DNA from: Nitrosopumilales archaeon
Lineage (GTDB): Archaea; Thermoproteota; Nitrososphaeria; Nitrososphaerales; Nitrososphaeraceae
DNA: 32,982 nt
Direction: 5' to 3'
Assembly (NCBI GenBank): GCA_044507735.1
Contig: JBIQJB010000004.1
Coordinates: forward strand, 1-32,982
Below the pieces are notes generated by a model. That model saw only the letters and a program-made list of their open reading frames with translations, made no database searches and had not been told where the DNA came from. Made by a program: the position numbers and the translations under genes. Positions 3,627-32,982 of this stretch are shown piece by piece. The first letter of the stretch is position 1, and every line of letters starts with the position of its first letter.

Positions 3627-4685
3627 TTACACTATTCTTGATACCGCCACTGTGAGATTGGGAGGGAACTTTTGTTTGGGCACAATAAGCACTCCTTTTG
3701 AGCTCAGGAGCGACGATGCTTCAGACACGCTAGGCGTCCCCTCGAACTTTTGCACCGTCTCTGAAGGGTTGGGAACGCTGACCGATGCGAGCTTGTCCTT
3801 GTCATAGATTTCGACTGGTATTCCATATTGCTTTGAAAATTCCTCCAAGCCTTTCGCTCTTGCCCCCCGATTAATGCTGGAGATGTTCCTTATGCTCCTG
3901 AATGAAAGTCCCCTTTCATTGAATACCGTCTTAACCCCGGACTCGATAACATCTTTGCTCGTGTCCCAGTGAAGGCCGATTCCAACCACGAGGGATTTAG
4001 GCCTATAGATTACCGATTTTTTCCTGACCTCTGGATCAGAAATTTCTCTGTCAGAAATGACAAGCCCCGCCTTGAACTCTGGCGATTTTATCTGATCAAT
4101 GCTACTTACAGCGACAATGTTTTTTGGGAGCGTTCCGTGCCACCAATTTTTCTCGCCCGCATCTTGGTAAACTGCGATTTTCTCTTCATTGACCATGAAT
4201 GCGCTAGTCTTAGTTACATTCTCAAAGTTCTCAATGGTCCATCCAAACTCTCTTCCAACCAGATCCACGGCAATAGTTTCGTTGACGTCTGCAGCTGTGG
4301 TTATAACAGGTTGCGACCCAAGGAAGGAAGATATCAATCGTGCGAGTTCATTTGCGCCTCCCAAGTGTCCCGATAGTGCGCTGATGACATAATTTGCTCT
4401 GTCGTCTATCACAATGACTGCGGGATCGCTCTTCTTGTCTACCAGATGGGGCGCGATCATTCTGATGACTGCGCCAAGCGAGAATATGCAGATCAGTGCG
4501 TCATGCGTTTTGAATAGGTTGCTGACGAGCTGTGTGCTCTGTTCTGAAAACCAGCTGATGTCTGTTCCGCCATCGCTGTGCTTTTCAGGGACGTAAATTT
4601 CAACTTCAGGCATTTTCTGCTTTATCCTGCGTGCTAGCTCTATCCCATGCTTTGTAATGGCAATAACAGCTGTCCTAGGCATCAT
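3627..4685 (-). CDS. cbiG: Cobalt-precorrin-5A hydrolase CbiG
   Basis: DKKSDPAVIVIDD, VISALSGHLGGANELA, PVITTAAD, LVVGIG, GTPSVSEA motifs. Confidence 0.92.
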   Translation of the reverse strand: MMPRTAVIAITKHGIELARRIKQKMPEVEIYVPEKHSDGGTDISWFSEQSTQLVSNLFKTHDALICIFSLGAVIRMIAPHLVDKKSDPAVIVIDDRANYVISALSGHLGGANELARLISSFLGSQPVITTAADVNETIAVDLVGREFGWTIENFENVTKTSAFMVNEEKIAVYQDAGEKNWWHGTLPKNIVAVSSIDQIKSPEFKAGLVISDREISDPEVRKKSVIYRPKSLVVGIGLHWDTSKDVIESGVKTVFNERGLSFRSIRNISSINRGARAKGLEEFSKQYGIPVEIYDKDKLASVSVPNPSETVQKFEGTPSVSEASSLLSSKGVLIVPKQKFPPNLTVAVSRIV

Positions 4686-14035: not shown

Positions 14036-17000
14036 CTATATTTCGTATGCTGCTATTACATTGTCCAACTCTTTAAGGAGCTGTTTTTGCAGAGATGCGT
14101 CTATTATCAGGTCGTCTTCCTTGCTATTTCCAACCGAGCCGTCAGCCTTGGATCTTATTTCTTTTAGTATCTGCACCATGTTCTTCACATCGTCTGTCTT
14201 TGCATGCATTACTGCACCGTTCGCTTCAGACAACAGCATATTGTCCAAGATGTTCTTAGATCCATTGGATTTGAATGCACTATCAGGCATGGAATCAATC
14301 AATGCCGCAATGCTATTGATGTTCGCAAGCCTTATCTCTCTGACATTTTCGATTGTAAGTTCGTCAAGTCCTGTGATATTTCCGGCACCATCCACATAGA
14401 ACTCAACGCTTGTTGTGCGTGCGAGTCTTATATTAGCCCAGTCGTTGTATCCGGTCAGGGTTTGCCCTGCTGACGTACCGCAACTGTTGCCGCTGATTCC
14501 TATATTGCTGACATCGGCGGCTACGCCCGTATCAACGAGATCGCCATCGCGGTTCCAATCGAACGCTTGACCGGTGACCCTTGTCAGCCGCGGGGTTGGA
14601 CCATATACAGTTGTCAGGCCTGAAGGAGTGCTTGTGTTTATGCCTGTAGGCTCGCTGAGGCTGGCCTCGTTCAACGTGTTCAGAGTCGATCTCGAATAGT
14701 CAAGGGGCCTACTTGCCACATAGTCATTGAATTGGAATGCGTAGGTCATGACGCTAAGATAGTTTGGCTTGCAGTTTATGTCATCCGAACCTCCGTGCCT
14801 GAGGTTAATATTGTGGCCAAGTTCATGCATCAGTGTTCCTGCCTGTTCGTCATTGTCGCCGACGTTGTGACCTCCTACCGATGTGAAGCTTCCCAATGAG
14901 ACTATGAAGTCGTTTCCGGGCAATTCCGCTATTCCAGAAGAAGTGCCACCATTGTAATTGTGTGCCCATAAATTATAATGGTAGACCATCCTCTTCGCCG
15001 CTATCGTATTAGCATTTGCTCTCTCTGTGGCCGTGCCAAAATTGGCGTTCTTTATTGTATTAAAGTCAGTGTCCCAGACTATGTTATTCTGGTGTGTTAT
15101 CTGTTCATCAATGTCTAAATGCAGTGTTATGCCATTTACTCCGTTGGGGTTCGTGACTGGAGCATTGTTGAATGCATTGATTACATTAGTTTCAGCCGTT
15201 GCAGTTGGGTGATGGAATTCCATGTAGTCGATTTCGATATAGAGATCCTTGTGTTGCGAATTTGCCCCAGCTAGTGTAAGGTCGTTGGTGCCATCGAGGT
15301 TACCATCTATACCACTTGTTTCCCAAAGATCGTAGATCCCGTCATCGTCAACGTCGATGTTCGTCCGCTCATATCTCAAATTATACGGAGTCGTACTTCC
15401 CTCGTGCCATAATGCTCCGGCCTGACCTATTCCACTGGTCAGCCCGTTGGGAGAAGTGAAGGTCGTGCCAAATGGGTTGGCGGGAGCGGCCCAAGAGCCA
15501 TTGTGGTCACTTTTCTGCGTGACATAGACACGACCGCCGCTTAGAGTGTATATACGAATAGTGCCGTCGGGAGTTACTGTGATGGAAGGCAATGCGTGTG
15601 AGAGAGTGCTATCAGCTGTTTCAAATGCAGAGAAGGTGCCCGTATTTGCAAACCTTGCGACTCTTAATGTCCCCGATGTTCCGCCATTCAAGAATGCAAC
15701 AAACGCCTTCCCTGTATAGTCGCTATCCGAAGAGATCTGCTTGACGGTGTTTGCGCTCATCCCAGTTGAAGTCTGTGACTGGACCGAACCCCAAGTTGAA
15801 GTGCTCTGAGTATATACCCTGTAGAAGAGGCTGGCAGAGTCATACCGCGCATAGGCAAGAAGCATGTTCCCGGAGGCCAGATCTGTCAAGGTCATTTCTA
15901 CTCTTGTACCAGCTCCAGAACTGACTTCTGCAAGTGATGTTGTCCAAGTTGAACCGCCATTGGTTGAAGTTAGGATCCTGTATGCATAGGTGGAAGAACC
16001 GGAGGGAAGATATCGGAAGGCGACATGGATTCTGCCATTCAGGACGTTGGAATCGGCAGCTGCTGTAGCTGCTGCGCATACTCCACTGCTACAGGCAGCA
16101 TTATTTGCTATAGTGAACAATGTGGTGGCAGACCCCCATGTAATAGTGGTTCCACTCACGGTTCCGCGCATTGAGCGGAAGTCTGTATTTGTCCCACTCT
16201 GCTGGAAATAAAATAGTATGATGTAATCTGTCGTTGGTCCTTGGGAGCTCGTTGCATAGGAGATATTAGCAATGGTCCACCTGTTATTGTCGCTGTTTAT
16301 AGTACCAGTCGCTGGCTGGTTTCCTCCTGTTGTCCAAGACGTGCCTCCATTTGTTGAATATCTCCATCGGATATTTGAGCCATCATAGTAAAATGCAAAG
16401 ATGTTGGAGTTGATTTCTACGACTCTTCGCTCGCCTTCATAATAATCAGTAGAGAAGGGTGAAATTGCTGCTGAAACAGTCGTTACTGTGGTAGGATCAA
16501 TATCGAACGACTTATCAACATCAATCCTTATCATTTTCGATTCGGAATCAAAGCTTACATTGTATCCGGCTGAAACAGCATCAGACCAGTCGAGACCCAC
16601 GCCCTCTCTTTGGTCTTCCAAAACTTGTGAATTAGAAATAGTTGAATTTGACTGGAGGGTGCGGTCATATACATTGTTCTTCAGTGCGGTAAAGCCATTG
16701 CCTTTAGCTTCAATGTCCTGCGAGCTCGCGACAGCCAAGATTATGGTTGACGGCTTTTTGCTCTCGCCTACGACAGCAAACTTGTATTTGTCCACTGTGC
16801 CCTTTTCGTTCTGCACAGGCGTCCAGTTTATATCATACTGCAGATCCCGGCTTGAAAACACGCTGTATCACATCTTCACCATTTTGGAGCAATGTGATCT
16901 TGCCCTGATTTTTCTGGTATGCTAAGTGTAAAGCTATTTCCTCTATCATCAGAAATGATCGTGCTGCCATCAGGGTTCCAAGTTATTGTTTGTTTTAATT

Positions 17001-17779: not shown

Positions 17780-19135
17780 CTAGATGTGAACAACTTTGAG
17801 TGTGGTGCTCAGATCAAGGGTATCAAACTTGACATGGATTGATTTTGCTATCTGCGCCTTGACATGCTCCGGAATTCCGCCATAGCATTTGTTCAGTACT
17901 TCAGTGTTTTCCCATCCGCCTAGACTAGCTACATAAGAAAGCGACCAGTTAGTAGCAGCTAGATAGTACTGAGCCATTGTATGCCTGAATAGATGTAAAG
18001 GATGACCATAAAAGTACACTCCATCCCCTAGTGCATATATTCTGGTCTTTTCGTTTAGCCAGCTGCTCTTATCAAGCTCTGAGAATATCTTCTTGAATCT
18101 GATAGCCATCTTTGACATGAAATAGGAAGCTTGCAGAGCATTTGCCTTGTCACTTTTGGCATCTTCAAAGAACAGAAACCTTCTGTCCTTTGGCAGCTTG
18201 TCGTAAGCAGTTTCAACAACAGCTCTGCATTCCTCTGTCGGATACTTGACCCACCATTTACCCTCTTTAGTCAGATACCAATCTCCTCTTTTTGTTTTGG
18301 ATTCAAATTGTTCTACTCTGAACAATGGAGAAAAAGCTATCCTGTCTCGGCTCATGGATGCCATTGCAAATGCTCTAGCCCCTGTATGCAGGTCAATGTT
18401 CATAAAAGACCAAGCTTCCCAGTCTTTTTTACTCATAAGCAGCTTGTTTACTTTGTCAATCTGCTCTGGCGTTAACAGAATATCTTTGTACTCTCCTAGC
18501 CTCTCAGATGTAGTAGACAATCCATACCTCTTGCCCTCACCATGTGCAAAATTGATGTTGTGAGCTGCCAAAAAGCTGCGGTAAGCGTTAATCGTGTTTG
18601 TCTTTTGCATCTGCGGGTACGCAGTATTGAACCAAGCCAGAAAGTTCTGCCAGTATTCAATCGCTATCTCTTTGCGCTTTGTAGTATCAATGGGTATGCC
18701 ATAGCTAACTAGTGTCTCTGGCATCACCTTTAGCTGATTCGATATCCCATGTATGACATTTACAAGATGATTGATTCTGTTAGCCGGTATTGCGCCTGAC
18801 TTTAGAAATGTTATCCATTTCTGAATAGATGGCAGCTGGTTGAACGGTTCATTGTCTAGCTTCTGGTATTGCTGCGCTACTTGCTTTTGAAGTGAGATGA
18901 CTATATTGCCATTAACATCGCGCTTTATTCCCCATTTACCTTCATTTTCCATCTCAGCCAGATACCGCGATATCGTGCTATGGTCTTTGCCAATGTCAAT
19001 GCCTATTTCTCTTGTTGTATAGTTGCCGTTTTGGATGCTGATTGCAATAGCTTCTTTGATCTTCCCCCTGTCTTTGACTCTTAATCCTTTAACCCTTAGC
19101 CGGCTCTTTCTTGTCTGTACAATTGCCTGAACCAT
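17780..19135 (-). CDS. Tyrosine recombinase/integrase with N-terminal winged HTH
   Basis: Catalytic set: HTGAR (R), ESKTK (K), HLFRH (HxxR), LGGW (W), KCYG (Y). N-terminus YTTREIGIDIGKDHSTISRYLAEME is HTH-like. Confidence 0.88.
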   Translation of the reverse strand: MVQAIVQTRKSRLRVKGLRVKDRGKIKEAIAISIQNGNYTTREIGIDIGKDHSTISRYLAEMENEGKWGIKRDVNGNIVISLQKQVAQQYQKLDNEPFNQLPSIQKWITFLKSGAIPANRINHLVNVIHGISNQLKVMPETLVSYGIPIDTTKRKEIAIEYWQNFLAWFNTAYPQMQKTNTINAYRSFLAAHNINFAHGEGKRYGLSTTSERLGEYKDILLTPEQIDKVNKLLMSKKDWEAWSFMNIDLHTGARAFAMASMSRDRIAFSPLFRVEQFESKTKRGDWYLTKEGKWWVKYPTEECRAVVETAYDKLPKDRRFLFFEDAKSDKANALQASYFMSKMAIRFKKIFSELDKSSWLNEKTRIYALGDGVYFYGHPLHLFRHTMAQYYLAATNWSLSYVASLGGWENTEVLNKCYGGIPEHVKAQIAKSIHVKFDTLDLSTTLKVVHI

Positions 19136-19708
19136 TAGCCAGATAACCTCTTTTGATCAACTGCAATAACGCCTAGAACTGACAGAAGCAGTGACGTGGT
19201 AGGGGGATAGATATACCAGATAACAGATAATAAAGTCGGAAAAATCGTTAGTAATGCTTGATGAGCTCTGAAGTAAAAGTTTAGCAGCAGTATATTTTCA
19301 GTGCTATTCTGAAGCTTCGCGCCTATGCAACAAGTTATGCAACGCTTTTGGTGCATTAGACGCTTGATGGAAGCGATATTCTCAAATAATTAATTGATAT
19401 GCACTTGCCTCTCAGAGTTGAGCTATATGACTCTTTGATTCAAATCGACAAGCACGCCAAAGGCACGGGATGTCTTTGCGACACCTGGGAGCATACTAGC
19501 ATTGGCAGCGACTTGGACATCCAATGAAAAGGACCTGGAAGCACATGCATACTGTCTGAAGCCAGATGAAACTAGATGATTGCCAAAGCTGCTTCTCGAA
19601 AGGTGGCGTGATCAATCGCCAGAAAACTACCAGAATGCCACGAATGGAGCAAGGTTTCTAGAGGCCCACTTCAGCATGTAGGACAGTTTACTGCACCCAC
19701 AAAAGGGC

Positions 19709-20779
19709 CTAGCTTGCGCGCCTCTTGCGCGGCTCCATGAGTCCCATCAGCTGGTAGCCATATTCCAAGTTATGCTTAACGTGGTTTATCCCGTGTGTTC
19801 CATGCGGAACAAACTTGCCGTCAAGCACGTTTTCGATGTATATTTTGGCCTTCCGGATAGAGTTGATGGCGTGCTGTAGCTGGTTATCAGTCAGCTTGCG
19901 CCCAAGGTCTCTTTCAACCTCTTTCTTGAACGCTGCTGGGCTTGATAGCTTGCTGTATTTTTGCAGGCGTTTGTAATTGACCGATAGGTCGGTTATCTTT
20001 TTGATGTCTGCGGCCTGCAGGCTCGCAAGCGAGCGCTCTAGGTCTTTCCGCGGTCTGTTCGTGATATTCATCAGGTTTTCCACCAGCTCGTCACTGTAAG
20101 AAACAGGCGCATCGGTATGTACTAACTTGCCACTCTTACTGTCCGATAGAACTGCCGCATATGACGCTGACGGGTCTTCATTTATCGCTGTTGTTTTCCT
20201 CTCCTGGAAGTATCGTTCCAAGCTATAGATTCCGACGGGTTCTCCCCGCGTATCCACACCTTTGTCAAGGGCGGAAATGGTATCGACTATTATGCGCGGA
20301 TAATGCAATTTGGTAGTCTCGTCTGCCTTTGGGTAGTTTTGCATGATATCCTCGTATATGTGAAAAGTTGTGTCGTTGACAGTCTTTGTGCCTGCTCTCT
20401 TCGAGTCAACGCCCTTGGCAGCCACGGTCAAAAAGTCACACATTTCAGACTGTGACAATATCCTGCCAGTGACGGCGGTTGCATCGGCTATTGCCTTTGC
20501 GGCGGTAATCCACTTGCCATAAGTATTGATGGTGTTAAGTGGGACGCTTCCAATGAACTCGACAGCTTTTTTGCGAGTGGACGGATCTTCGATCTTTAGC
20601 GTGTCAAGACATCCAGTCAGTACACTGCCGAGTGAAACAGAATCACTAGTGCGTTCAGATTCCGGGACAGAAGGGGAGGGAGGAGAATGCTGCCTGTTAT
20701 GACTGGCAGAACTGTGAGAAACCATTGCTATTACTAGTAGGCTAAGCTCATGCCTTAAAGCTTTCGCAGGCACCTTCAT
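19709..20779 (-). CDS. Hypothetical protein
   Basis: Long ORF with natural composition, Ser/Pro-rich N-terminus and C-terminal HGTHGINHVKH cluster. Start uncertain. Confidence 0.6.
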   Translation of the reverse strand: MKVPAKALRHELSLLVIAMVSHSSASHNRQHSPPSPSVPESERTSDSVSLGSVLTGCLDTLKIEDPSTRKKAVEFIGSVPLNTINTYGKWITAAKAIADATAVTGRILSQSEMCDFLTVAAKGVDSKRAGTKTVNDTTFHIYEDIMQNYPKADETTKLHYPRIIVDTISALDKGVDTRGEPVGIYSLERYFQERKTTAINEDPSASYAAVLSDSKSGKLVHTDAPVSYSDELVENLMNITNRPRKDLERSLASLQAADIKKITDLSVNYKRLQKYSKLSSPAAFKKEVERDLGRKLTDNQLQHAINSIRKAKIYIENVLDGKFVPHGTHGINHVKHNLEYGYQLMGLMEPRKRRAS

Positions 20780-22537: not shown

Positions 22538-23134
22538 TTAAAGTTCCGAGGGGTCGATTGTGGCAAAGCGGAAAGAATCCTCCTTGTGCACCCGCCGGAA
22601 CTGGCTGTCAAAGTATAGGAACGGCTCGTCCTTGTACACATGGCGGTCCCAAAGGTCGTGTACTTTGCCAAAGTAGTCCTTCTTGGTCTTGCCCTTCATC
22701 CTAAGAAGCTCGTGCGCGAGAACATGTGACACTCGCGGGCAGTTCTTTTCCGCATAGAATGCATAGCGCTGCGTTTCGGACGAAACGTCATCCAGCCTCT
22801 GCCACCAAGTCACCCCTAGATTTTCAGCGGTATAACCTTCGGTGTTACAATCTGTCCAGAACGGCTTAAAGTATGCAAGGTAAAAGTGGTAAGTAAAAGA
22901 ACCTCGCTCAGAATGGTCCCTCATAAGATATGCAAGTGACATTCTGTCAAACACTTTGCCAGGAACAACGGGTAGTATGTCGGCGTCCACAGGTAGCTTG
23001 ATGTCGAAATAGCGTTGTGCCCACCACTTGAAGAAACGGGCCATTGATGAAACATAGTTCCAGTCTTCCTGCTGTCTCTGCTGCCACTCACTGGCCTTGG
23101 CGACATAGATGAAAAAGATCTTTTCTGGTTTCAC
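22538..23134 (-). CDS. Hypothetical protein with degenerate zincin-like motif
   Basis: Clean aromatic-rich ORF; SHVLAHELLR (HExxR). Confidence 0.65.
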   Translation of the reverse strand: MKPEKIFFIYVAKASEWQQRQQEDWNYVSSMARFFKWWAQRYFDIKLPVDADILPVVPGKVFDRMSLAYLMRDHSERGSFTYHFYLAYFKPFWTDCNTEGYTAENLGVTWWQRLDDVSSETQRYAFYAEKNCPRVSHVLAHELLRMKGKTKKDYFGKVHDLWDRHVYKDEPFLYFDSQFRRVHKEDSFRFATIDPSEL

Positions 23135-23140
23135 ATCGGC

Positions 23141-23341
23141 TCAGCCTTGGTGGAGCATATCATGGCGGCGATCGTGATGCTGATGGTGGCCACCGCAACT
23201 GCATGATTCTTCGCCGCTTCCAACCCAGCCGGCCCGTTCCGGTTGCGGATGAGCCTTACTCATGTGCTTCATCAACTTGTAATCCGAATCAAATCCCTCT
23301 CCGCAAATAGAGCAGTTTTGCAGTATCCGGAATTCCTTCAC
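23141..23341 (-). CDS. C2H2 zinc-finger microprotein with Cys/His-rich tail
   Basis: CSICGEGF....KLMKHMSKAH plus CSCGGHHQHHDRRH. Confidence 0.7.
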   Translation of the reverse strand: MKEFRILQNCSICGEGFDSDYKLMKHMSKAHPQPERAGWVGSGEESCSCGGHHQHHDRRHDMLHQG

Positions 23342-23376
23342 GTTACACGATTGGATTAAAAAGGCATTAAAACCTT
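23342..23376. promoter_or_regulatory. Compact bidirectional promoter
   Basis: A 35-nt gap between divergent genes holds two opposed TATA-like tracts (TTAAAAA on +, TTTTAA on -). Confidence 0.4.
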
Positions 23377-24237
23377 ATGACTACGATGGCTGCCGCATAC
23401 GATCCAATCAGGTACAAAATCAGCTCGATCCAGAACTGGAATTCGGTTGCCAAGAGCTACCATGGAGAGTGGGCCAGCAAACACAGAGGACCATTCAAAT
23501 CCACCGCTAAGCTAGTAGAGGCAGCTGACATCAGGCCATCAGACGTTGTCCTTGATGTTGCTTGTGGAACTGGAGCAGTATCGATGCAGGCTATGCTCCT
23601 TCTTGGAGACTCAGGTTTGCTCGTAGGAATTGACTTTTCAAGGGGCGCACTAGAGATCGCCAGGTCGTCGGTTCCGGTGGGCCATTTTTTCGAAATGGAC
23701 GCCGAACATATCGGGCTTGCCACTAGATTTGACAAGATATTATGTCAGTATGCCCTGATGTTCTTTCCAAACCCTGCAAGTGTGCTGCGGCAGCTCCATG
23801 ATCTGTTGAGAAAGGGAGGCAGGATAGCAATAGCCGTGCATGGAACATCAGAAGGTGTCCCATATTTCAGCACGGTTATGAACCCGGTGCTCCGCTACAT
23901 TCCCGATATTCGCCCCGCAGGGGCGCCAACTGTTCACCGCTTTGGCAACTCTGCTGATCTAAGAAAAGCTATTGCCGATGCGGGCTTTACTGACGTCTCC
24001 ATAGGGGAATTTACTTTCGACTACGAAGCTGGAACCTTTGAAGAGTACTGGTCGGACTACATGTCGACCACTGCATACTCTATACGCGCTGCAATCGAAG
24101 GAAAGCACCCTTCGGTGGTTGCACAGATAAAAGCAGAAGCAGAGCAAAATGCGAGACGCTTTGTCATGAACAATGACAACAAGATATGCTTCCCGTGGCA
24201 GGTGCTCATAGCAACTGCAGTACGTGCGGAAGACTGA
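23377..24237 (+). CDS. Class I SAM-dependent methyltransferase (UbiE-like)
   Basis: VLDVACGTG, GIDFS, EMDAE, FDKILCQYALMFF, LRKGGRI. Confidence 0.9.
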   Translation: MTTMAAAYDPIRYKISSIQNWNSVAKSYHGEWASKHRGPFKSTAKLVEAADIRPSDVVLDVACGTGAVSMQAMLLLGDSGLLVGIDFSRGALEIARSSVPVGHFFEMDAEHIGLATRFDKILCQYALMFFPNPASVLRQLHDLLRKGGRIAIAVHGTSEGVPYFSTVMNPVLRYIPDIRPAGAPTVHRFGNSADLRKAIADAGFTDVSIGEFTFDYEAGTFEEYWSDYMSTTAYSIRAAIEGKHPSVVAQIKAEAEQNARRFVMNNDNKICFPWQVLIATAVRAED

Positions 24238-24273
24238 TGTAGCCCATTTTCGGACTATCAAGCGTATATACAT

Positions 24274-24792
24274 ATGCAAGGCAGACAGAAAAGACAGGCA
24301 TTTCTTTACGCAGGAATTGGATTTGTAACCATAGGGATTGTTTCAATATTTTTGGTATACATTTTCGTGTATCAGCCGGCCGCCACAAACGAGAGAGCAA
24401 CGGAAAATCAGGAATTTAACCTCGAAGAGATCCATCGCGTCCCACTTGCAAGGCATGACCATGTCATGATGTCGTTATTGGTGAACGGGCAACCCACAGT
24501 GATTCCCGAAGGGGTCGGTATGATGTCGGATCTGTGGCACGATCACTCGCTTGACAGGTACGGGCCCTCAGGTATATCCCCTATGCACACCCATGATACT
24601 TCTGGAACAATCCATATCGAGTCAACAACACCAAGAGCATATACGGTGCGTGAATTCTTGAACGTCATGGGCCTCGATTCGAGCGCAGCGACGCGGATGA
24701 CAGTCAACGGTAATGAGGTCGAGAATTTTCTAGATCACGAGATGCAGAACGGCGAGAGGATCCAGTTAGAGATGACTATTGCTCCACAATAG
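24274..24792 (+). CDS. Membrane-anchored hypothetical protein with HDH...HTHD..G.IH.E putative metal site
   Basis: N-terminal TM; RHDH, IPEGVG, MHTHDTSGTIHIES; C-terminal VNG..V beta-grasp-like end. Confidence 0.7.
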   Translation: MQGRQKRQAFLYAGIGFVTIGIVSIFLVYIFVYQPAATNERATENQEFNLEEIHRVPLARHDHVMMSLLVNGQPTVIPEGVGMMSDLWHDHSLDRYGPSGISPMHTHDTSGTIHIESTTPRAYTVREFLNVMGLDSSAATRMTVNGNEVENFLDHEMQNGERIQLEMTIAPQ

Positions 24793-25078
24793 CATGCTTC
24801 CGGTTCTCTTTCCTTCTCGACTCCAGGTACATCCACATCAACGTTGTTAGCGTATAAGTTGGGATAAGATCTCCTATCACTGGTACGAGCTCTGCCATAT
24901 TAAGTAGCGTTGAGCGCTTGCTTCGAGTTATCGTATACAGCATACTTGTAATCATAACATCGAATATGTCGCCAACTAGAGGGATTCCAAATATCGGCGC
25001 CGCTACATAATCAACAGTGTCTGCCACAATGGAGATTGCAAGCGCCATAGATGCACGAAACTTGAAACTAGAACCCAA
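24776..25078 (-). CDS. Small hydrophobic hypothetical protein
   Basis: IPLVGDIFD / ELVPVIGDLIPTYT internal repeat; TATAAG about 28 nt upstream. Confidence 0.65.
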   Translation of the reverse strand: MGSSFKFRASMALAISIVADTVDYVAAPIFGIPLVGDIFDVMITSMLYTITRSKRSTLLNMAELVPVIGDLIPTYTLTTLMWMYLESRRKENRKHAIVEQ

Positions 25079-25633
25079 CGGTAGTAAATAATGTACACAT
25101 CATGACTTATAGAGCATTCAATCCATTGTTAAACAACCCTTCAGTTTGGTCAAAGTGCCTCGTTCGATGATTTGTTTCTTGACCTTTTCCCTCTTGTAAC
25201 GGCCTTTAGGGCATCTTGGATCTCTCGAATATGCATCACATACTTGTCGAGTGCATGCGCAAGAATCCATCATTCTATTGACATTTGTAAAAGTAAACTA
25301 AAGACGCTTGCGAATACATAATTCACAGTTATTCTTAGTTTCTAGTATTTTCCAGGTCATTTCTTCATTTGGTTCTACTGTCCAACCAACCCAGAAATCT
25401 ATTCATTCTTCCTTGAATTGGCCTACCTTCTATTGAATTAGGTCAATCCTTCTCATCGTTTCCAGCTATGAAGTGAAGTACGAGCCCCAAGGTCATTGCG
25501 CAATAAAGTAGAGTAAACATGCTACCCTATTGTTCATAATTGTTGGCTGTCGCCAGTGTTGCAACAACAAGTGCTATCCCAAACCCTCTAGAGTCTCGCC
25601 ATCAACTTAATGTTGATACTGGATCATATCAGC

Positions 25634-26545
25634 CTATTGCGGAGGAACGTGTTTTGTGATCTGGGCGTCCATCACAGAGCCAAACGTGCCGTCACGATCA
25701 TGTGATAATCCAGGTATTATGTCAAGTGAAGTCTTGAATCCAGCGCGGGTGTAATGATCATATCCTGCTTTTACACTGTATTTTCCGTCTCCAGTGTACG
25801 AGCGATCCTTGCTTCCAACATTCCAGTTCATGTGCACTGATGATTTAAACGATGGTGTATAAGCGACTTCTGGCATTTTTGGTGAACCCCCATACGAAAT
25901 TGCAACGACGACGCCGGACGTCATTGTGCGCTGGGCAGCACCAGAAGGCACCCACCATTCAGTGGCAAGCTGCGCACCGGATGAATATCCTCCGAAGGCA
26001 ATACGCCTTTTGTCAATCCTGTACTGTGACTCTATCTTTCTTACCAGACTCTCAGCCCATCTTGTATAGCCAGGCGGATCGCCCATATACCAGCAAGAAC
26101 CGTCCCCGTCAGCACAGCTCTTGTTTGGGGATAGAGGTGCGAGCAATACCATATTGTGTCTCTTTGCTACGCTGATCAGCCCGTTGTCACCGGCCAATAA
26201 GTATGAGCTTTTAGGATGCTTCAGACCATATTCGCCTGATCCGTCTGCATATATCAGGAGGCCAATTGGCTTTGTGCTATCAAGTCCGTCTGCATAGAGA
26301 AGATATGTTGAAGTATATCCGTTTGCGCTAAATGAGAAGCTTCCGCTAGCTGCTTTTCCATTATCTAGCGCAGCTTTACTCTTATTTTGTGCATTTACTC
26401 GCTCTGAAACGCTAGCGGATGGATTTGGAAGAATCCTTCCCCAGTCAACAAAGGATGCAAATGTCATGACTGCACCTGCGGCTGCAATCAATTTTAGAAA
26501 ATCGCGTCGCGATATTCTTCCCCCGGCTGGCGGCGTCTGCGCCAT
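25634..26545 (-). CDS. Tat-exported alpha/beta serine hydrolase (esterase/depolymerase-like)
   Basis: ISRRDFLK twin-arginine motif; nucleophile GYSSG; VGSKD (Asp); PGLSH (His). Start placed at ATG 26545 (MAQTPP); the ORF is open to 26596. Confidence 0.8.
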   Translation of the reverse strand: MAQTPPAGGRISRRDFLKLIAAAGAVMTFASFVDWGRILPNPSASVSERVNAQNKSKAALDNGKAASGSFSFSANGYTSTYLLYADGLDSTKPIGLLIYADGSGEYGLKHPKSSYLLAGDNGLISVAKRHNMVLLAPLSPNKSCADGDGSCWYMGDPPGYTRWAESLVRKIESQYRIDKRRIAFGGYSSGAQLATEWWVPSGAAQRTMTSGVVVAISYGGSPKMPEVAYTPSFKSSVHMNWNVGSKDRSYTGDGKYSVKAGYDHYTRAGFKTSLDIIPGLSHDRDGTFGSVMDAQITKHVPPQ

Positions 26546-27162
26546 GTTAAGAGAAAAGGATTCTTTGATAATATGAGTATCTGTCTTAGTTTCCACTAAA
26601 CGTCAAAAATCTGATATACGCGGTTGGTTTGCAAGATGTTAAGAAAAATTCCCGCCGCGGCAACAGAAAAACTCAGCATCCTCAAATCCAGAAGAGTTCA
26701 AGCAGCTTTAGGTATGATCATCCACGAAGGATTCCATTTGGAACTTGGTGTCAGACACACACAACAAGCCATCCCTAGATGCTGCAAAATATTGACTTCT
26801 TTCCCTTCATTTCTTCTGCTTAATCTAACAATAGAAATAGTCAGCAACCAGACCATAACCAACTAGCAGCCAATTCGAAAGTCATGCCAACATCTAGGAC
26901 AGAAAGGAGCACCCCAGAGTTCAAGTCACAAATAGGCCAATTGCCTAAAAATTGATGCATACATGGATATATTAGAAAGATTACTATGATCTGGAGAGCT
27001 CTAACATTCCTACCCAGCTTGGCTGCAATGGTGCAATGATGTTTCTCAGTGTAAAGTGATGATGTGAGAAGGCGTCACATAACTTTTAGATTTTATAGAT
27101 CACAGCGTATCCACCAGAATTCTTAATATTTTGAACAACACTGTCGTAAGCGTGGTCTCTCT

Positions 27163-30100
27163 TTGAAGACCGTCGTACACGAAAATGTGAGCGACGCATT
27201 GTGTTGGGTTCCTGATGAAAGGCTCAATCATCTTATCGAAGAAGCTTGCATCCGTTTTGCGGCGAATGATGCCGTGATTGGAAGTAACATCGTTTATAGC
27301 TATAGCGATCTTAATCGCCGTGCAAATCAGCTCGCCCGTCATTTACTCGCGCGCGGAGTCAAGTCCGGCGACCGAGTTGCGCTGATGCTTAATAGATCGC
27401 CAGAAACATACGTGGCGATGCTTGCGGTGATGAAAGTCAATGCGGCATATGTGCCGCTTGACGCAGGCTTTCCGAATGAACGCATCAGTTTCATCTTAGG
27501 AGATGCCAACGTTTCTGCCATCATATCAATGTCGAGTTTCGTCGAGCGCCTCTCCAGCCTCCAGCAAGAAGTCGACAAAATATTTCTGGATTTTGAGCGG
27601 CCAGCAATTGATTCACAGGCAGCAGACCCATTGACTGACATTGAGGAGCCAACAGAGCCGCTATGCTACATCATCTATACATCTGGCACCACTGGCAATC
27701 CCAAAGGTGTCGGCATCGGACACGCAAGCATTTGCAATTTTGTGCGTATAGCCAGTGAGCTTTATGGCTATGCGCCAGGCGATCGCGTTTATCAGGGAAT
27801 GACGATCGCGTTTGATTTCTCGGTCGAGGAGATCTGGGTGCCACTGATGGTGGGTGCAACACTCGTTCCGGGCCCGTCTGGCACGACCTTGATGGGTGAC
27901 GAACTTTCAGACTTTCTGCGGGAACGCCGCGTCACCGTGATGGCTTGTAGTCCGACGCTGCTCGCCACCATCGAACAAGATGTGCCCGAGCTGCGGATCC
28001 TCCTGGTCGGCGGCGAGGCTTGCCCGCAAAATCTCGTAGCCCGATGGTATCGCCCGGGTCGCCGCATTCTCAATACGTACGGTCCCACCGAGACGACGGT
28101 CACGGCGACAATGACCGAGCTGCGGCCAGACAAGCCAGTCACGATAGGCATGCCGCTGCCGACCTATACAGTCGTCATCCTAGATCCTCAAGAAGAAAAG
28201 ACCGTTCCGATTGGCGAGCCCGGTGAAATCGGTATCGCGGGCATTGGACTAGCACTTGGTTACATCAATCGCGATGACTTGACGAAACAGAAGTTCATCC
28301 GTGATTTCCTGCATATCAAGAACAACCCTTCGGGCCGGATTTATCGCACCGGAGATCTTGGCCGGATCCAAGAGAACGGTGAGATCGAATACCTCGGCAG
28401 GATCGACACTCAGGTAAAGATCCGCGGCTATCGCATCGAGCTCAAAGAAATCGAAGCAGTGCTACTCAACCTACCCCAGATCGCTCAGGCAGCCGTGACG
28501 ACATTCGAGGCCGAGGAGGGCGTCGTCGAAATTGTCGCCTATTATGCTCTCAAGCAGGGGGCTACCGAGCTGCCACCTAGCGAGATTTCGCAGGCGCTGC
28601 GCAGCAAGCTTCCCGCCTACATGGTGCCTGCCTTCCTCGAACGGGTCGACGCCATACCAATGACACTGAGCAACAAAACTGACTACAAGAGGCTGCCAAA
28701 GCCGGAGCAGTTGCAGCGTGTTTCTGTCGCCGCGCAGAAATATGTTCCGCCGAAAACCGACCGCGAGCGTATGCTCCATGCCGCGCTTACTGGGGTAATT
28801 CGCGCCGAACGTGTCTCGACGGAGGCACACTTCTTTGATGATCTAGGTGCTAATTCGCTATTGATGGCACGTGTCTGTGCTGCAATTCGCAAGAATCCGG
28901 GCATGTCAAACGTTTCGATGCGCGACATCTATACGCATCCAACGATCGCCAAGCTCGCACGTCATCTCGATTCGTCATCTGTCGGCACACCTGTAACTAC
29001 GACCAAACCTGAACCATTTCACACTCCGTCGACTCTGTCATACGTCTCATGTGGTGCTCTGCAGATCGGATTCCTGGCGGCATACATGCTTTTCAACCTC
29101 TGGATCCTTCGGAGCGGAGCCCTATGGGCACTTGCTTCTAACGGCCCGATGGAGCTTTACGCGCGCAGCGTCGCTTTCGGCGTTGGCGAGTTTGCCGTAC
29201 TGTTCGCACTTCCCATAGCGGCTAAATGGCTGTTAATTGGCCGCTTCAAGACACAATCATTCCCTATCTGGAGTTTTTCATATTTCCGTTTCTGGGTCGT
29301 CAAATTCATGATGCGCACATCGCCAGCAGCTGTGTTTGTCGGTACTCCACTCTACAATATCTATTTGCGCATGATGGGCGCGAAAATCGGCCGCAATGTA
29401 ATCCTGAACTGGCGGTCCGCGCCGGTCTGTACCGACCTCGTGACGATTGGTGACAACACTATTGTACGCAAGAACACCATCCTGCTCGGGTACCGTGCGC
29501 AGTCAAACTTCATCCATACGGGCCCGGTGACGATCGGCAGCAACGCGTTCATCGGAGAAGCGAGTGTGCTCGACATCAACACTACAATGGGCGACAACAC
29601 GCAGCTCGGTCATGTCTCGTCGCTGCAGAGCGGCCAGCGCGTGCCGGATGGCAAGCGCTACCATGGCTCGCCGGCTATCGAGACGTCTACCAATTATTGC
29701 CCGATCGATGGCAGGAACGGCGTTGCGTTCCGAGGTGCCCTTTATGTGTCATTCATCCTTGGGACACTGCTCTTGATCGTGGCACCTGTGATGATGTTTC
29801 TGATCTACACCGTCTGGTATTGGTATTGTCCGTCACCTCTAACCTCTCTGAATTGTCCGGCGATCTCTTCCTTGTCTGTTCCCTTGCTGCTCGCCCTCTC
29901 GGCAGCGGTGTTCTTCGGCGCGCTCGGCCTCTCGCTGGCGGCCATGTATATCATCCCGCGTCTCTTCATGATGGCGCTGCGGCCCGGTGTGACCTATACC
30001 CTTTTCGGCTTCCATTACCTGCTGCAAAACATCATCCGGGGCAGCAGCAACTCAGAGTTCTTCTGCACTCTGTTCGGCGATTCATCAGCCATAGTGACGT

Positions 30101-31236
30101 ACATGCGCTACCTGGGCTGGAACCTGAACACGGTCTACCAGACTGGCTCGAACATGGGCAACGAACAGTTTCACGACAACCCTTTTCTCTGCAATATCGG
30201 CAGTGGCACGATGGTCTCAGATGGGGTGTCGATGATCAACATGCAGATGTCGGCGACGTCGTTCCGGCTTGAGGAATCGAAGATAGGCGACAACAACTAT
30301 CTTGGAAGCGCAATTTCCTACCCGCCAAATAGTCGCACAGAAAACAACGTCCTGCTGGGCACCAAGGTCATGGTACCTATTGACGGCCCTGTGCGCGAGA
30401 ACATCGGGCTGCTTGGTTCGCCTGCCTTCGAGATTCCGCGCATGGTCAAGAGCGATCGGGATATCATCAAGTCGTTCGACGAGCCGACTCGCTGCGCCCG
30501 CCTGCGCCGGAAGAACTTGTACAATCTCGGCACTGCCTTGATCTTCCTAGCCAGTCGGTGGGTGGCCTTTACTTGCTTCGTGTTTCTGCTGTGGCAAATA
30601 GCCTGGAGCTACAGTCATTTTAGCATCTTAGGATTATTCGCAGTCATTGTGGCGAGTACCGCTTTCACCATGGCATTCTTCATCGCGCTCGAGCGAGCGA
30701 TCCTTCGCTTCAAGCGACTCCAGCCTCGGCTCGTGTCGATTTATGATCCCTACTTTTGGTTGCATGAAAGGTACTGGAAGTTGAATCCTCTCTTTGTCTT
30801 GATCATGTTCGCAGGCACCCCGTTCCGAGGCATGCTACTCCGTGCCATGGGCGTGAAGGTCGGTGCCAAGCTGTTCGATGATGGCTCGGTCATCCAGGAA
30901 CGCTCGCTTACAGAGGTCGGCGATTACGCTAATCTGAACGAGGGCTGTGTAATGCAGGGACATTCGCTTGAGGAAGGCGTTTTTAAATCAGACTACATCC
31001 GAATCGGCAACAGATGTTCGCTCGGCCCGGGAGCCTTTGTTCACTATGGTGTCAGCACAGGAGACGACGTCGTGATCGACCCCGATTCCTATGTAATGAA
31101 GGGTGAGACCTTAGATTCTCATACAGGGTGGCGCGGAAATCCTGCTAGGCTGGCACGCTGCCATGAGGTTCAGACAGAGGTTTGCACTCAGAACATCACC
31201 GACGTTACCATCCTAAATAGGCACTCCCTGGCGTGA
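27163..31236 (+). CDS. Pls/PosA-family single-module membrane NRPS (A-T-TM with three acetyltransferase-like repeat domains)
   Basis: A-domain cores YSDLNRRANQLA, YIIYTSGTTGNPKG, FDFS, NTYGPTE, GEIGIAG.GLALGY, YRTGDL, GRIDTQVKIRGYRIE, LPAYMVP, NKTD. T domain FFDDLGANSLL. Then three repeats of TM pair + soluble domain (AAKWLLIGRF..YFRFW..GTPLYNIYLRMMGAKIG; GDS..YMRYLG; FWLHERYWKL..FAGTPF..LLRAMGVKVG). Confidence 0.93.
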   Translation: MKTVVHENVSDALCWVPDERLNHLIEEACIRFAANDAVIGSNIVYSYSDLNRRANQLARHLLARGVKSGDRVALMLNRSPETYVAMLAVMKVNAAYVPLDAGFPNERISFILGDANVSAIISMSSFVERLSSLQQEVDKIFLDFERPAIDSQAADPLTDIEEPTEPLCYIIYTSGTTGNPKGVGIGHASICNFVRIASELYGYAPGDRVYQGMTIAFDFSVEEIWVPLMVGATLVPGPSGTTLMGDELSDFLRERRVTVMACSPTLLATIEQDVPELRILLVGGEACPQNLVARWYRPGRRILNTYGPTETTVTATMTELRPDKPVTIGMPLPTYTVVILDPQEEKTVPIGEPGEIGIAGIGLALGYINRDDLTKQKFIRDFLHIKNNPSGRIYRTGDLGRIQENGEIEYLGRIDTQVKIRGYRIELKEIEAVLLNLPQIAQAAVTTFEAEEGVVEIVAYYALKQGATELPPSEISQALRSKLPAYMVPAFLERVDAIPMTLSNKTDYKRLPKPEQLQRVSVAAQKYVPPKTDRERMLHAALTGVIRAERVSTEAHFFDDLGANSLLMARVCAAIRKNPGMSNVSMRDIYTHPTIAKLARHLDSSSVGTPVTTTKPEPFHTPSTLSYVSCGALQIGFLAAYMLFNLWILRSGALWALASNGPMELYARSVAFGVGEFAVLFALPIAAKWLLIGRFKTQSFPIWSFSYFRFWVVKFMMRTSPAAVFVGTPLYNIYLRMMGAKIGRNVILNWRSAPVCTDLVTIGDNTIVRKNTILLGYRAQSNFIHTGPVTIGSNAFIGEASVLDINTTMGDNTQLGHVSSLQSGQRVPDGKRYHGSPAIETSTNYCPIDGRNGVAFRGALYVSFILGTLLLIVAPVMMFLIYTVWYWYCPSPLTSLNCPAISSLSVPLLLALSAAVFFGALGLSLAAMYIIPRLFMMALRPGVTYTLFGFHYLLQNIIRGSSNSEFFCTLFGDSSAIVTYMRYLGWNLNTVYQTGSNMGNEQFHDNPFLCNIGSGTMVSDGVSMINMQMSATSFRLEESKIGDNNYLGSAISYPPNSRTENNVLLGTKVMVPIDGPVRENIGLLGSPAFEIPRMVKSDRDIIKSFDEPTRCARLRRKNLYNLGTALIFLASRWVAFTCFVFLLWQIAWSYSHFSILGLFAVIVASTAFTMAFFIALERAILRFKRLQPRLVSIYDPYFWLHERYWKLNPLFVLIMFAGTPFRGMLLRAMGVKVGAKLFDDGSVIQERSLTEVGDYANLNEGCVMQGHSLEEGVFKSDYIRIGNRCSLGPGAFVHYGVSTGDDVVIDPDSYVMKGETLDSHTGWRGNPARLARCHEVQTEVCTQNITDVTILNRHSLA

Positions 31237-31335
31237 AGAGACAAACGATCCACTACTACCAGCATATGCCAGACGATCCGATTGCAAAGTCGATCTATGC
31301 GACCTTCGGCTTTGTGAAGGTGGGGTTGTACTCCC

Positions 31336-32064
31336 ATGTCAGGTGATCGCTGTTTTAAGACTCCAGTTTCTGACAGTACGATCGATTCCTCGCTCCAGCA
31401 CACAATCGACGCCCTTGCTGTGCCCGGTCTACTGATCGGCCATCGTGTGATCTCTGAGGGCGATGAACTCGCACTGCTCTACGATGAGGTGAAATCGTTT
31501 TCCTTGCCTACAATCGAGAGGCGCCGCGCCAGTGGCGCAGCAAGGTTCGTTGCACGTGAGCTTATGAATTTGATGGGTGTTGCCAGTCTTCCGATTCCCC
31601 GGAGCAAATTTGGCGCCCCCATCTGGCCAGCAGGAATCATAGGCTCGATGGCGCACGACAATCAAATTGCAGTTGCCGCTGTCGGGTCGCGGCGTGATTT
31701 GGATGCGGTAGGAATCGACATCGAACCTGCGGCGCCGCTGCCGCCAGACATACTCGAACTGGTCGCCACATCGCGCGAGCAGCGTGAAATTATTGGCAAC
31801 AAGTTTGGAGCGAGGCTTCTCTTCGCTATCAAGGAGGCGGTCTATAAGGCAACCTATCCACTAGATCATGAGTTTCTTGATTTTCACGACATCGAAGTCG
31901 ACCTGACCAACCGGCTTGCCACGACCCGATCCGGACTTACGCTAGCGCTCCACTGGGGTGTCTTGTCGCATGTGCTAGTCTTGGCGACAATTCACAATAC
32001 TTCGACGGATCACTTGGCCCCCTGGCTCAAAAAAGCTCGAGTCAGATCGACTGCAGCTTGTTAA
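31336..32064 (+). CDS. 4'-phosphopantetheinyl transferase (EntD/Sfp-like)
   Basis: RRRASGAAR, GAPIWPAGIIGSMAH, VGIDIE, LFAIKEAVYKA. Confidence 0.9.
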   Translation: MSGDRCFKTPVSDSTIDSSLQHTIDALAVPGLLIGHRVISEGDELALLYDEVKSFSLPTIERRRASGAARFVARELMNLMGVASLPIPRSKFGAPIWPAGIIGSMAHDNQIAVAAVGSRRDLDAVGIDIEPAAPLPPDILELVATSREQREIIGNKFGARLLFAIKEAVYKATYPLDHEFLDFHDIEVDLTNRLATTRSGLTLALHWGVLSHVLVLATIHNTSTDHLAPWLKKARVRSTAAC

Positions 32065-32982
32065 TACACAAATGCCACGCTAGTTGCATACCAGGTTGTG
32101 ATGGCGCGCAAGCCCTTGCTTGCAATGAGACAGCAAAATTATCAGCGGAACGATCAGGTTCCATGTCTTGCAACCGCGTCCAAGCTCAGCCTCTGCATAC
32201 ATCTTCTCGCTGGCCTTCGTTGTCTTGATGTCGTCTATTCTAGTCACCAGTATCACATGTGGTCTACCGCTTGCGTCCAGGCTTATAAAAGACGGTACAG
32301 TTCGATTCATCGGTCACCCCAATTCTTCAACAAAATGGGATTGTCGTCATCCGTCCACATAGGTCTACAGCCCAAACGTTGGTCTTTTCCTTCCTTTTCA
32401 GTATCGGCGACTGATCTTTAACAACATCATTTGTTGGTCACTCTTTTAGTGACAAGTCGGGAAAGTAAAGCCACTTGAAGAACTTTGGATAAGTTGCAGA
32501 GAGGATATTGTGCGTGTTAATCCACTTTTTTGTTTACGATCAGCCGATACCGGCTTACGTATGGTGGCGAGATATCACAGAATGCCATCTCTTGTTATCT
32601 ACTTGAAGCGCTTGTGATTCAGAAATCTGCAGACATAAAGGCTGCCGCAAATATGGACGCACTTCGTAACCGTCCTGATGCTCTCGTGAATGATAAAATC
32701 ATCGAGAAAATCCGCCAGGACAAGCCCATTTCTGTAGAAAATTCTTTCGCAGGCTGCCGCTGTGTGTTTGGCTTCAACCCTTCAACAGCATCCGAATCCT
32801 GCGGCCCGCAACGAGGTTCCCGGCACTTATAACAGCAGCAAGCCCACGCTTGTTCACGGAAATATGCACTCTGGGCGCAACTTATTAACTCTCACATTGG
32901 AGGAGCAAAGTTCATTATTTACCTACGCGATGGTTCGATAGGTGCACTTGCTTGGTATTTAGGAAAGTCGGCGCCGTCATAT

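Follow-up and report, generated by a model that had tools for sequence, protein, structure and literature searches.

A Pls/PosA-family peptide synthetase and its partner phosphopantetheinyl transferase in Nitrososphaeraceae: a two-gene cassette of probable Hyphomicrobiales origin

How did the gene for a membrane-bound non-ribosomal peptide synthetase (NRPS), with that for a 4'-phosphopantetheinyl transferase (PPTase) directly behind it, come to lie in the chromosome of an ammonia-oxidising archaeon, and what might the two enzymes make there? NRPSs are rare in archaea: a survey of 128 archaeal genomes counted three clusters, all of them in Methanomicrobia and Methanobacteria, and the portion of that survey cited here records no archaeal NRPS with a known product (PMC8024701). 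The two genes considered here, which we refer to as the cassette, stand near the end of a window of 32,982 nucleotides from a Nitrososphaeraceae genome, comprising bases 1-32982 of the 99,289-base contig C22 (JBIQJB010000004.1) of genome G000 (GCA_044507735.1). The assembly holds 2.33 Mb in 55 contigs and is 97% complete and 0.5% contaminated. It contains two full-length matches to archaeal amoA over the cut-off, on separate contigs (G000:C17:115287-115835 and G000:C9:29699-30247, at 398.8 and 383.4 bits), which identify the source genome as that of an ammonia oxidiser. We propose, with fair confidence, that the cassette is a Pls/PosA-type synthetase together with its activating PPTase, that it was acquired from Hyphomicrobiales, that it has been kept by purifying selection and that it makes an isopeptide-linked polycation.

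The first-pass annotation of this DNA had described the synthetase as an uninterrupted reading frame of 1357 residues with the adenylation motifs in place, a carrier serine encoded by TCG at 28855-28857, three units each of transmembrane (TM) segments and a repeat, and no condensation or thioesterase domain, an architecture likened to that of Pls and PosA. All of this was borne out. The public protein collection holds an identical 1357-residue protein (P0003). All ten adenylation core motifs, under their customary names, can be read in the translation, and the NCBIfam model for amino-acid adenylation, TIGR01733, exceeds its cut-off of 317 with 423 bits. The attachment residue of the carrier domain is Ser565 in the motif D-L-G-A-N-S-L-L, and its codon reads tcg. 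A Pfam scan of the 1357 residues found no condensation or thioesterase family at E ≤ 0.01, and hexapeptide families gave sub-threshold matches only. The C-terminal half matches TIGR02353, 'Pls/PosA family NRPS', with 667.3 bits against a cut-off of 423.1, from residue 630 to 1328 and over profile positions 2-695 of 695 (669.9 bits in a six-frame search of the DNA). By this score, by its domain order and by the predicted fold of its C-terminal domain, the synthetase is assigned to the Pls/PosA family (Table 1).

Kyte-Doolittle hydropathy (19-residue window, threshold ≥ 1.6) marks six hydrophobic segments arranged as three pairs. An AlphaFold2 model of residues 610-1357, computed from a 40-sequence alignment with a predicted local distance difference test score (pLDDT) of 87.6 and a predicted template-modelling score (pTM) of 0.88, shows the same unit three times over, each time with two long helices as a pair, some short helices and a beta-helix. 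The three-repeat model agrees with the AlphaFold/RoseTTAFold description of PosA in the cited part of Patel & Gulick (PMC10522769). In the PDB, Foldseek ranks maltose and galactoside O-acetyltransferases at the top, along with other hexapeptide-repeat acyltransferases, and each of them matches a single beta-helical unit, with a query-normalised score (TMq) of at most 0.17 and a target score of up to ~0.6. Neither Foldseek nor phmmer found a solved structure for the whole C-terminal domain in the PDB, and the phmmer matches are confined to residues ~9-612, which hold the adenylation and carrier domains. Since the TM elements are hairpins, the adenylation domain, the carrier domain and the three beta-helical units are expected to lie on one cytoplasmic face, and a shared face would be needed for the carrier arm to reach all three units.

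The second gene begins after a gap of 99 nt (31237-31335) in the same orientation, as had been noted earlier, and encodes a PPTase in which both domains exceed their cut-offs (PF17837, 59.6 bits; PF01648, 50.7 bits). The NCBIfam equivalogs PptT, Npt and EntD score 91.7, 90.1 and 29.9 bits, below their respective cut-offs of 365, 370 and 169, so by profile score the enzyme is classed as a relative of these proteins and not as a member of any of them. The first-pass annotation had called this PPTase dedicated to the synthetase, and the claim is now well supported. The cassette PPTase is the single ACPS-family match in the source genome and the carrier domain of the synthetase is the single PP-binding match. 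On a control set, the ACPS model found matches in 10 of 10 bacteria and in none of four archaea. Among the 72 genomes of the genus that were searched, only G000, G031 and G081 carry the PPTase, and the same three carry the synthetase, while the other 69 were found without the PPTase. All tallies in this work are counts over samples of genomes, in which not found among those searched does not equal absent; the genus set takes in six unpublished genomes (G009, G022, G025, G071, G072 and G088) and the family set of 238 takes in two (G241 and G258), none of them with the synthetase. Across the family, the PPTase is present in 10 of 11 genomes with the synthetase, the exception, G117, being 85% complete. 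In the seven synthetase genomes outside the genus it lies on the synthetase contig, 0.4-0.9 kb from the matched C-terminal domain.

The pairing extends to bacteria. When one genome per species was scanned, 80 synthetase loci were obtained, and 22 of these, together with C22, L008 and L010, were compared for their neighbours. A PPTase lies directly downstream of the synthetase in 7 of the 10 archaeal and 11 of the 15 bacterial sources compared, and it is the sole neighbour that archaeal and bacterial loci have in common; other neighbours in these loci include an ECF sigma factor, an anti-sigma factor and a chorismate synthase. The remaining 58 loci, many of them with short flanks, were screened for PPTases only, and 18 gave a match (blastp, E ≤ 1e-5). 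Apart from the cassette, a small frame of AcpS type (79-135 residues) was found in 20 Nitrososphaeraceae genomes with no TIGR02353 match, two of them the unpublished G241 and G258. It is concentrated in two genera (10 of 14 genomes in g39 and 4 of 10 in g38) and in many cases lies no more than a few kb from the start of a contig (e.g. G259:C10:652986-653306).

Is the cassette truly part of an archaeal chromosome? In a metagenome-assembled genome (MAG), the segment could be bacterial contamination or a chimeric join, and two features would fit that explanation: the G+C content (GC) climbs from ~0.44 to 0.54-0.56 at the gene, and the nearest named non-archaeal relatives are Alphaproteobacteria. 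However, the window is the first third of its contig, which places the cassette in the contig interior with archaeal genes on both sides. All 72 genus genomes contain DNA that matches the upstream flank (~19.6-25.1 kb), and 5-11 kb downstream of the cassette lie genes for TFIIB, an Rpb7-type RNA-polymerase subunit, DUF359, an Mrp/NUBPL ATPase, NadC and NadA. The two flanks are also found, collinear and ~9 kb apart, in the complete genome G062. We also placed Logan contigs of four sequencing runs, from four studies, on positions 23000-32982; one of the runs is possibly the source sample and the other three come from other studies. Contigs bridge both the 25.08-kb boundary and the intergenic junction at ~27.1 kb in 4 of 4 runs (one contig of 9.6 kb covers 23000-28973 with 2 differences), the PPTase end is bridged in 2 of 4 runs among the pieces listed, and word depth is flat across the segment. 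These results answer the first-pass call for a check of continuity between 25 and 33 kb in favour of a genuine archaeal locus.

Orthologues in two further species of the genus, at 80-91% nucleotide identity, argue in the same direction. In G031 (another species, ~80% nucleotide identity) the same arrangement occurs at the same site, split over contigs C172 and C417. In G081 (88-91% identical) the cassette is followed by DNA that in G000 is located on contigs C32 and C9, reflecting either a rearrangement or a different context. Seven further archaeal loci show this GC contrast to AT-rich flanks as well. On the position in the contig interior, the bridging contigs, the archaeal genes downstream and the orthologue at the same site, a chimera or contaminant was rejected, and we hold it to be extremely improbable.

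A bacterial origin of the cassette, a point that goes beyond the reading of the first-pass annotation, is indicated by its relatives. The closest relatives of the synthetase are proteins of Nitrososphaeraceae and Nitrososphaerales MAGs and of a Nitrosocosmicus MAG (72-80% identity), followed by those of Alphaproteobacteria (Xanthobacteraceae, Pseudolabrys, Pseudorhodoplanes and Rhodoplanes; 59-67%) and, farther off, of Proteobacteria and Actinomycetota (~48-55%). An unrooted tree of 83 rows, made up of the 80 scanned loci, the window protein and two close relatives with none dropped, was inferred by a quick IQ-TREE search under LG+G4. The window protein falls in a clade of 11 rows with a branch support (SH-aLRT) of 100 and a stem of 0.24, and this clade is nested in successive rows of Pseudolabrys, Xanthobacteraceae and Pseudorhodoplanes with supports of 94-100. 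Seven of its rows are labelled Nitrososphaerota, three are unlabelled and one (L041) is a 4-kb contig binned in an 'Alphaproteobacteria bacterium' MAG, whose 742-nt flank has a GC of 24.8% and which is therefore probably a misbinned archaeal contig. In a tree of 36 PPTases the archaeal clade again has a support of 100 and its Pseudolabrys/Xanthobacteraceae neighbours are joined at 92, an agreement with the synthetase tree which indicates that the two genes travelled together.

Base composition indicates the direction of transfer. The GC of the synthetase gene is 47-62% against 35-41% in the flanks at the 7 archaeal loci, and 54.3% against a genome value of 48.6% in the source genome. At the bacterial loci (n=9), the gap between gene and flanks is 0.1-1.9 points in most and 4.5-6.8 points in three. 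The mismatch in archaea and the near-match at most bacterial loci point from bacterium to archaeon, and uptake of the cassette by soil Nitrososphaeraceae from a Xanthobacteraceae-like member of the Hyphomicrobiales is, on these sequence comparisons, a well-supported reading.

Has the archaeal host kept the cassette, or is it a passenger? A profile search across archaeal genomes, which the first-pass annotation had suggested as a check, shows that the synthetase is present in related archaea and patchily distributed. TIGR02353 matches occur in 3 of 72 genomes of the genus and, at the level of the family, in 11 of 238, which belong to 4 of 18 genera; 10 of these family matches are over the cut-off. 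No match was found among 24 genomes from other families of the order, in one draw, nor among 398 genomes sampled from elsewhere in the phylum. This patchiness would suit a silent or decaying relic of horizontal transfer that yields no product in the archaeon, as would a GC that is still far from that of the host and the broken frames in some archaeal copies (L023 and L047), for which the assembly error rate could not be judged. The sequencing runs listed for the locus included no RNA run, which counts neither way. Against such a passenger stand Nei-Gojobori ratios of nonsynonymous to synonymous substitution (dN/dS) of 0.12-0.28 over 8 archaeal pairs, at dS values from 0.26 to 1.65, which indicate purifying selection since entry into the archaea. 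Full-length open frames exist in four genera, the catalytic motifs and the carrier serine are all intact, the PPTase is kept with the synthetase in all but one of the family genomes that have it, and the sequence just upstream of the gene is AT-rich like the host genome. We thus consider a mere passenger very unlikely, and retain the reading of a selectively maintained cassette.

Constraint is not uniform along the protein. The TM segments are the most diverged parts, with 35-53% identity to the bacterial sisters as against 70-78% in the soluble domains, and this pattern may be compatible with adaptation as well as with ordinary drift of TM sequence. Two Nitrososphaeraceae MAGs carry two synthetase copies each (L021, L022, L031 and L053). 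In the copies L021 and L022 the specificity code reads DFEALGGVGK, with Gly at both of the positions where PosA has a polar residue supporting the side-chain amine, and a 144-177-residue open reading frame (ORF) without a family assignment lies downstream in place of the PPTase. This copy type is possibly a paralogue with a different substrate, to judge from its code.

Which amino acid would the enzyme activate? Nine of the ten positions of the specificity code were read from a gapless alignment of residues 200-330 to the adenylation domain of PosA (8G95), and the tenth, K505, from separate alignments. The alignment reproduces the published PosA code DMEHNGTVS, which validates the mapping. The code of the window protein is DFEALGTVTK (D218, F219, E222, A261, L281, G283, T305, V313, T314 and K505). 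Among 200 aligned sequences the first three positions are D-F-E in 175, D-F-D in 4 and D-Y-E in 1, while 20 lack the region or have gaps in it. The code is DFEALG[ST]VTK in the bacterial sisters and DFECLSVVTK in the actinomycete relatives. Closely similar codes also stand in cultured bacterial relatives, DFECMGTVTK in Rhodoplanes (Rhodoplanes serenus DSM 18633 and Rhodoplanes roseus DSM 5909) and DFEALGTVTK in Astrobacterium (Astrobacterium formosum). According to the cited text of Patel & Gulick (PMC10522769), the Asp at position 1 and the Glu at position 3 are conserved in all such synthetases; both are present here (D218 and E222). The same text gives position 2 as Phe in the synthetases of poly-diaminopropionate (PDAP) and poly-diaminobutyrate (PDAB), Met in PosA and Ala in Pls, and reports that the substitution M218A shifts PosA towards lysine. 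By this published rule, Phe219 predicts a short monomer, diaminopropionate (Dap) or diaminobutyrate (Dab), and not lysine. Weighing the code against the search for a supply route described next, we place Dap or Dab first among the candidate monomers, at somewhat less than an even chance.

Several points weigh against the proposal as a whole and against this monomer in particular. The position-2 rule is founded on few enzymes; the main texts of PMC10522769, PMC12042044 and PMC4668381 do not print the full PDAP and PDAB codes, and looking for the code strings in full-text literature yielded nothing relevant. A supply route for Dap or Dab was sought in the 97%-complete genome with TIGR03945, TIGR03944 and TIGR02407 (TIGR00709 was not searched), and none of the three had a match over its cut-off: the best SbnA match (TIGR03945) has 189.8 bits against 350, in a gene that scores best as a cysteine synthase, the best SbnB match (TIGR03944) 23.4 against 327, and the best EctB match (TIGR02407) 221.9 against 552, in a gene that reaches only the cut-off of the ArgD subfamily. 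No precursor-supply gene beside the cassette is conserved in the archaea or sister bacteria compared. By comparison, the cluster for poly-D-Dab encodes PddC and PddD, as stated in the cited part of PMC8225329, and NjxA and NjxB have been shown to make L-DAP, according to that of PMC4668381. The direction of transfer is drawn from nesting, GC and distribution, the tree being unrooted. Further, a bacterial enzyme with six TM segments would need to work in an archaeal ether-lipid membrane. The first-pass annotation had regarded the two genes as a self-sufficient unit; its dedicated PPTase stands, but self-sufficiency is at most a presumption, since the monomer predicted from the code is Dap or Dab and a dedicated pathway to supply either was not found.

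The missing supply route, in the genome and beside the cassette in every lineage compared, is what one would expect if the enzyme and its origin were as proposed but the monomer were drawn from primary metabolism, with L-ornithine, L-lysine or arginine giving a polymer akin to poly-ornithine or poly-lysine. The genome encodes a transaminase of ArgD/LysJ type, which implies that ornithine and lysine are made, and a Glu at position 3 serves diamino acids from Dap to Lys in the passage cited from PMC12042044. The code speaks against this alternative. In PMC10522769, as far as cited, Phe at position 2 is reported for the PDAP and PDAB synthetases, whereas lysine enzymes have Ala and the ornithine enzyme Met, and it was M218A that moved PosA towards Lys; moreover, the code here differs from those of PosA and Pls at 4 of 9 positions each. 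We therefore view a primary-metabolism monomer as a real but clearly less probable option, and ornithine or lysine in particular as equally so, the remaining probability falling to some other substance or to none, and keep Dap or Dab as the preferred assignment.

In the mechanism that we envisage for the cassette, the PPTase would move phosphopantetheine from CoA to Ser565. The adenylation domain would activate a cationic diamino acid, with Asp218 holding its alpha-amine and Glu222 its side-chain amine, and the activated amino acid would be loaded on the carrier domain as a thioester. The C-terminal domain, with its three beta-helical acyltransferase-like units anchored at the cytoplasmic face by the three TM hairpins, would then repeatedly transfer the aminoacyl group to the side-chain amine of a free monomer or of the growing chain. 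The result would be an isopeptide-linked, polycationic oligomer or polymer leaving the cell, and its role, we infer, would most plausibly be that of an antimicrobial polycation.

The enzyme might instead pass aminoacyl groups to an acceptor in the membrane or at the surface, altering the charge of the envelope and releasing no free polymer. The catalytic units do fold like acyltransferases that act on sugars and small molecules, they are located at the membrane, and products are not known for any enzyme of the Xanthobacteraceae/archaeal subclade. Yet no characterised enzyme of the family, in the cited text of PMC10522769 or elsewhere, is known to make anything but a homopolymer, and the Asp/Glu pair for a diamino acid, whose second amine is the nucleophile of polymerisation, is kept. 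An acceptor of this kind is accordingly a poor candidate, about as doubtful as a silent passenger or slightly more so, and we continue with the free polycation.

Taking the proposal one step further, we speculate that soil-dwelling, ammonia-oxidising Nitrososphaeraceae secrete poly-Dap or poly-Dab, made by the captured synthetase from an unrecognised supply route, that the polymer acts on bacterial or fungal neighbours, and that the diverged copy with the code DFEALGGVGK makes a second polymer. This extended scenario is tentative and is put forward as a possibility well below an even chance. If it holds, the ether-lipid envelope of the producer would tolerate a polycation that hits its neighbours, and the product would be, for archaea, the first known non-ribosomal peptide and, for nitrifiers, the first secondary metabolite of antimicrobial type.

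The surroundings of the cassette define a variable segment. In G085, a genome of the same genus without the synthetase, blastn aligns positions 5-4682 of locus L012 (G085:C130) to 20319-25077 of C22, and matches resume ~220 bp on (4903/4931-6004 to 32900/33085-34183), which delimits a segment of ~25.08-32.9 kb that we call the island. It contains a gene for a protein with a twin-arginine translocation (TAT) signal, the synthetase, the PPTase and two small ORFs without a family. No flanking direct repeats were found at the island, and the window has no tRNA and no Rfam family at threshold. The TAT protein weakly matches the catalytic domain of polyhydroxyalkanoate (PHA) depolymerases of the extracellular, short-chain type (26.5 bits against a cut-off of 150), and no ORF from the other loci compared, archaeal or bacterial, clustered with it; among the matches listed (a further 123 are unlisted), G031 and G081 alone have DNA resembling its gene. 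A candidate archaeal promoter precedes the TTG start of the synthetase. A scan for bacterial-type promoters and terminators showed no enrichment relative to shuffled sequence, with 6 sigma-70 promoters found where 4.9 were expected.

Table 1. Coordinates of the cassette, its domains and other features of the island (positions in the window)
Feature	Position	Strand	Remarks
Variable segment (island) holding the cassette	25078..32900	.	~7.8 kb; ~220 bp instead in G085:C130
Twin-arginine-signal protein gene, in island	25634..26596	-	320 aa; TAT_signal 24.2 bits, TIGR01409 27.3 bits
Candidate archaeal promoter, AT-rich with TATA-like runs	27085..27133	+	30-75 nt upstream of TTG; putative
Synthetase ORF, single-module membrane-bound NRPS, Pls/PosA family	27163..31236	+	1357 aa, TTG start, no internal stop
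Adenylation domain	27241..28677	+	Pfam AMP-binding 27-367 (279 bits), AMP-binding_C 429-505
Carrier (thiolation) domain	28786..28968	+	PP-binding 542-602, 33.5 bits
C-terminal polymerisation domain (predicted), three repeats of TM hairpin and left-handed beta-helix	29050..31146	+	TIGR02353, AlphaFold2
TM pair 1	29053..29241	+	residues ~631-693, hydropathy; model helices 15-48, 53-83
TM pair 2	29719..29979	+	residues ~853-939, hydropathy; model helices 245-279, 297-327
TM pair 3	30526..30702	+	residues ~1122-1180, hydropathy; model helices 498-540, 546-571
4'-Phosphopantetheinyl transferase, Sfp/EntD/PptT type, two-domain	31336..32064	+	242 aa; PF17837 (4PPT_N), PF01648 (ACPS)

Elsewhere in the window, five ORFs have no Pfam or NCBIfam family (14036-16861, 17780-19135, 19709-20779, 32098-32421 and 32530-32832). 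The first, on the minus strand, encodes 941 residues. The second, likewise on the minus strand, encodes 451 residues and is part of an element (17780-19400) of which Nitrososphaera genomes have several copies apiece, with nucleotide identities of 75-85%; a copy in another species, G081:C49:375-1962, shows 100% identity over 1588 nt with flanks at ~82%. The element, ~6 kb upstream of the island, is a candidate for a recently active mobile element. The ~730 bp that follow the PPTase (32044-32775), which contain a 107-residue ORF without a family and the start of the 100-residue ORF at 32530-32832, have no counterpart in the otherwise collinear contig of G031.

The locus is of interest because its system is both minimal and complete, is maintained by selection and belongs to ammonia oxidisers of importance to soils and agriculture. 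Its product would tell whether nitrifying archaea engage in chemical warfare or in modification of surface charge, and bears on the product of the large D-F-E-A-L-G subclade, which is also common in soil Xanthobacteraceae. It further bears on whether a polytopic membrane enzyme of bacteria can work in a tetraether membrane, and the transfer itself, clean and datable, exemplifies the entry of a bacterial biosynthetic cassette into the Nitrososphaeraceae. With two genes, the system is small enough for direct expression and testing.

How new is this locus? A full-text literature search found no published description of the Nitrososphaera locus or of an NRPS in ammonia-oxidising archaea (two candidates, PMC6627896 and PMC13381963, proved irrelevant), and to this extent the first-pass statement that no characterised archaeal example was known stands. 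It has to be tempered in that archaeal homologues had already been noticed: Patel & Gulick 2023, in the cited part of PMC10522769, mention in passing a few archaea with homologues, and NCBI names the G081 orthologue 'Pls/PosA family non-ribosomal peptide synthetase [Nitrososphaera sp.]'. The cited part of PMC10522769 places archaeal sequences with unknown substrate in 'group 4' with the synthetases of PDAP, PDAB and epsilon-poly-beta-lysine, and the single archaeal signature that it quotes, DLEDIGTV[T/V/I]K, differs from the code found here. What we describe is thus a further member of an enzyme family already known, in a host lineage where it was not expected; the system as such is of no new kind, and public annotation already shows it in archaea.

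Among the characterised enzymes, PosA, the delta-poly-L-ornithine synthetase of Acinetobacter baumannii (8G95-8G98), shares with the window protein the TIGR02353 domain, the domain order and 5 of 9 code positions (D, E, G, T and V), but its code is DMEHNGTVS as against DFEALGTVT, with Met and not Phe at position 2. Pls, the epsilon-poly-L-lysine synthetase of Streptomyces albulus (7WEW), likewise consists of a single module without condensation or thioesterase domains and has six TM helices in three pairs; its code, DAESIGTVV, has Ala where DFEALGTVT has Phe, a difference which by the published rule argues against lysine here. The PDAP and PDAB synthetases, which make beta-poly-L-diaminopropionate (Streptomyces albulus PD-1) and gamma-poly-Dab, have the same architecture of one adenylation and one carrier domain plus three TM/C-terminal units, A-T-(TM/C)x3, and are stated to carry Asp1, Phe2 and Glu3 in the cited text of PMC10522769. 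The actinomycete rows of our tree also read D-F-E, but have CLSV and not ALGT at positions 4-7 and are only ~48-51% identical, the characterised PDAP and PDAB enzymes themselves not being among the sequences aligned. The characterised actinomycete producers also encode dedicated enzymes for the supply of Dap or Dab, according to the cited parts of PMC4668381 and PMC8225329, whereas none were found here, and the host here is an archaeon. The NRPSs of methanogens, such as Mru_0351 of Methanobrevibacter ruminantium, are likewise archaeal and their products are unknown; however, they are multimodular lines with domains for condensation, adenylation and thiolation (C-A-T) that end in a reductase, as opposed to the single-module membrane polymerase found here in a different phylum. 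The nearest likeness is to the cassettes of Xanthobacteraceae, Pseudolabrys, Pseudorhodoplanes and Rhodoplanes, which at 59-67% identity have a nearly identical code, DFEALG[ST]VTK, and the same PPTase directly downstream, but in which the GC of the gene is close to that of the flanks at most loci, while the archaeal clade is set apart on its long stem (0.24).

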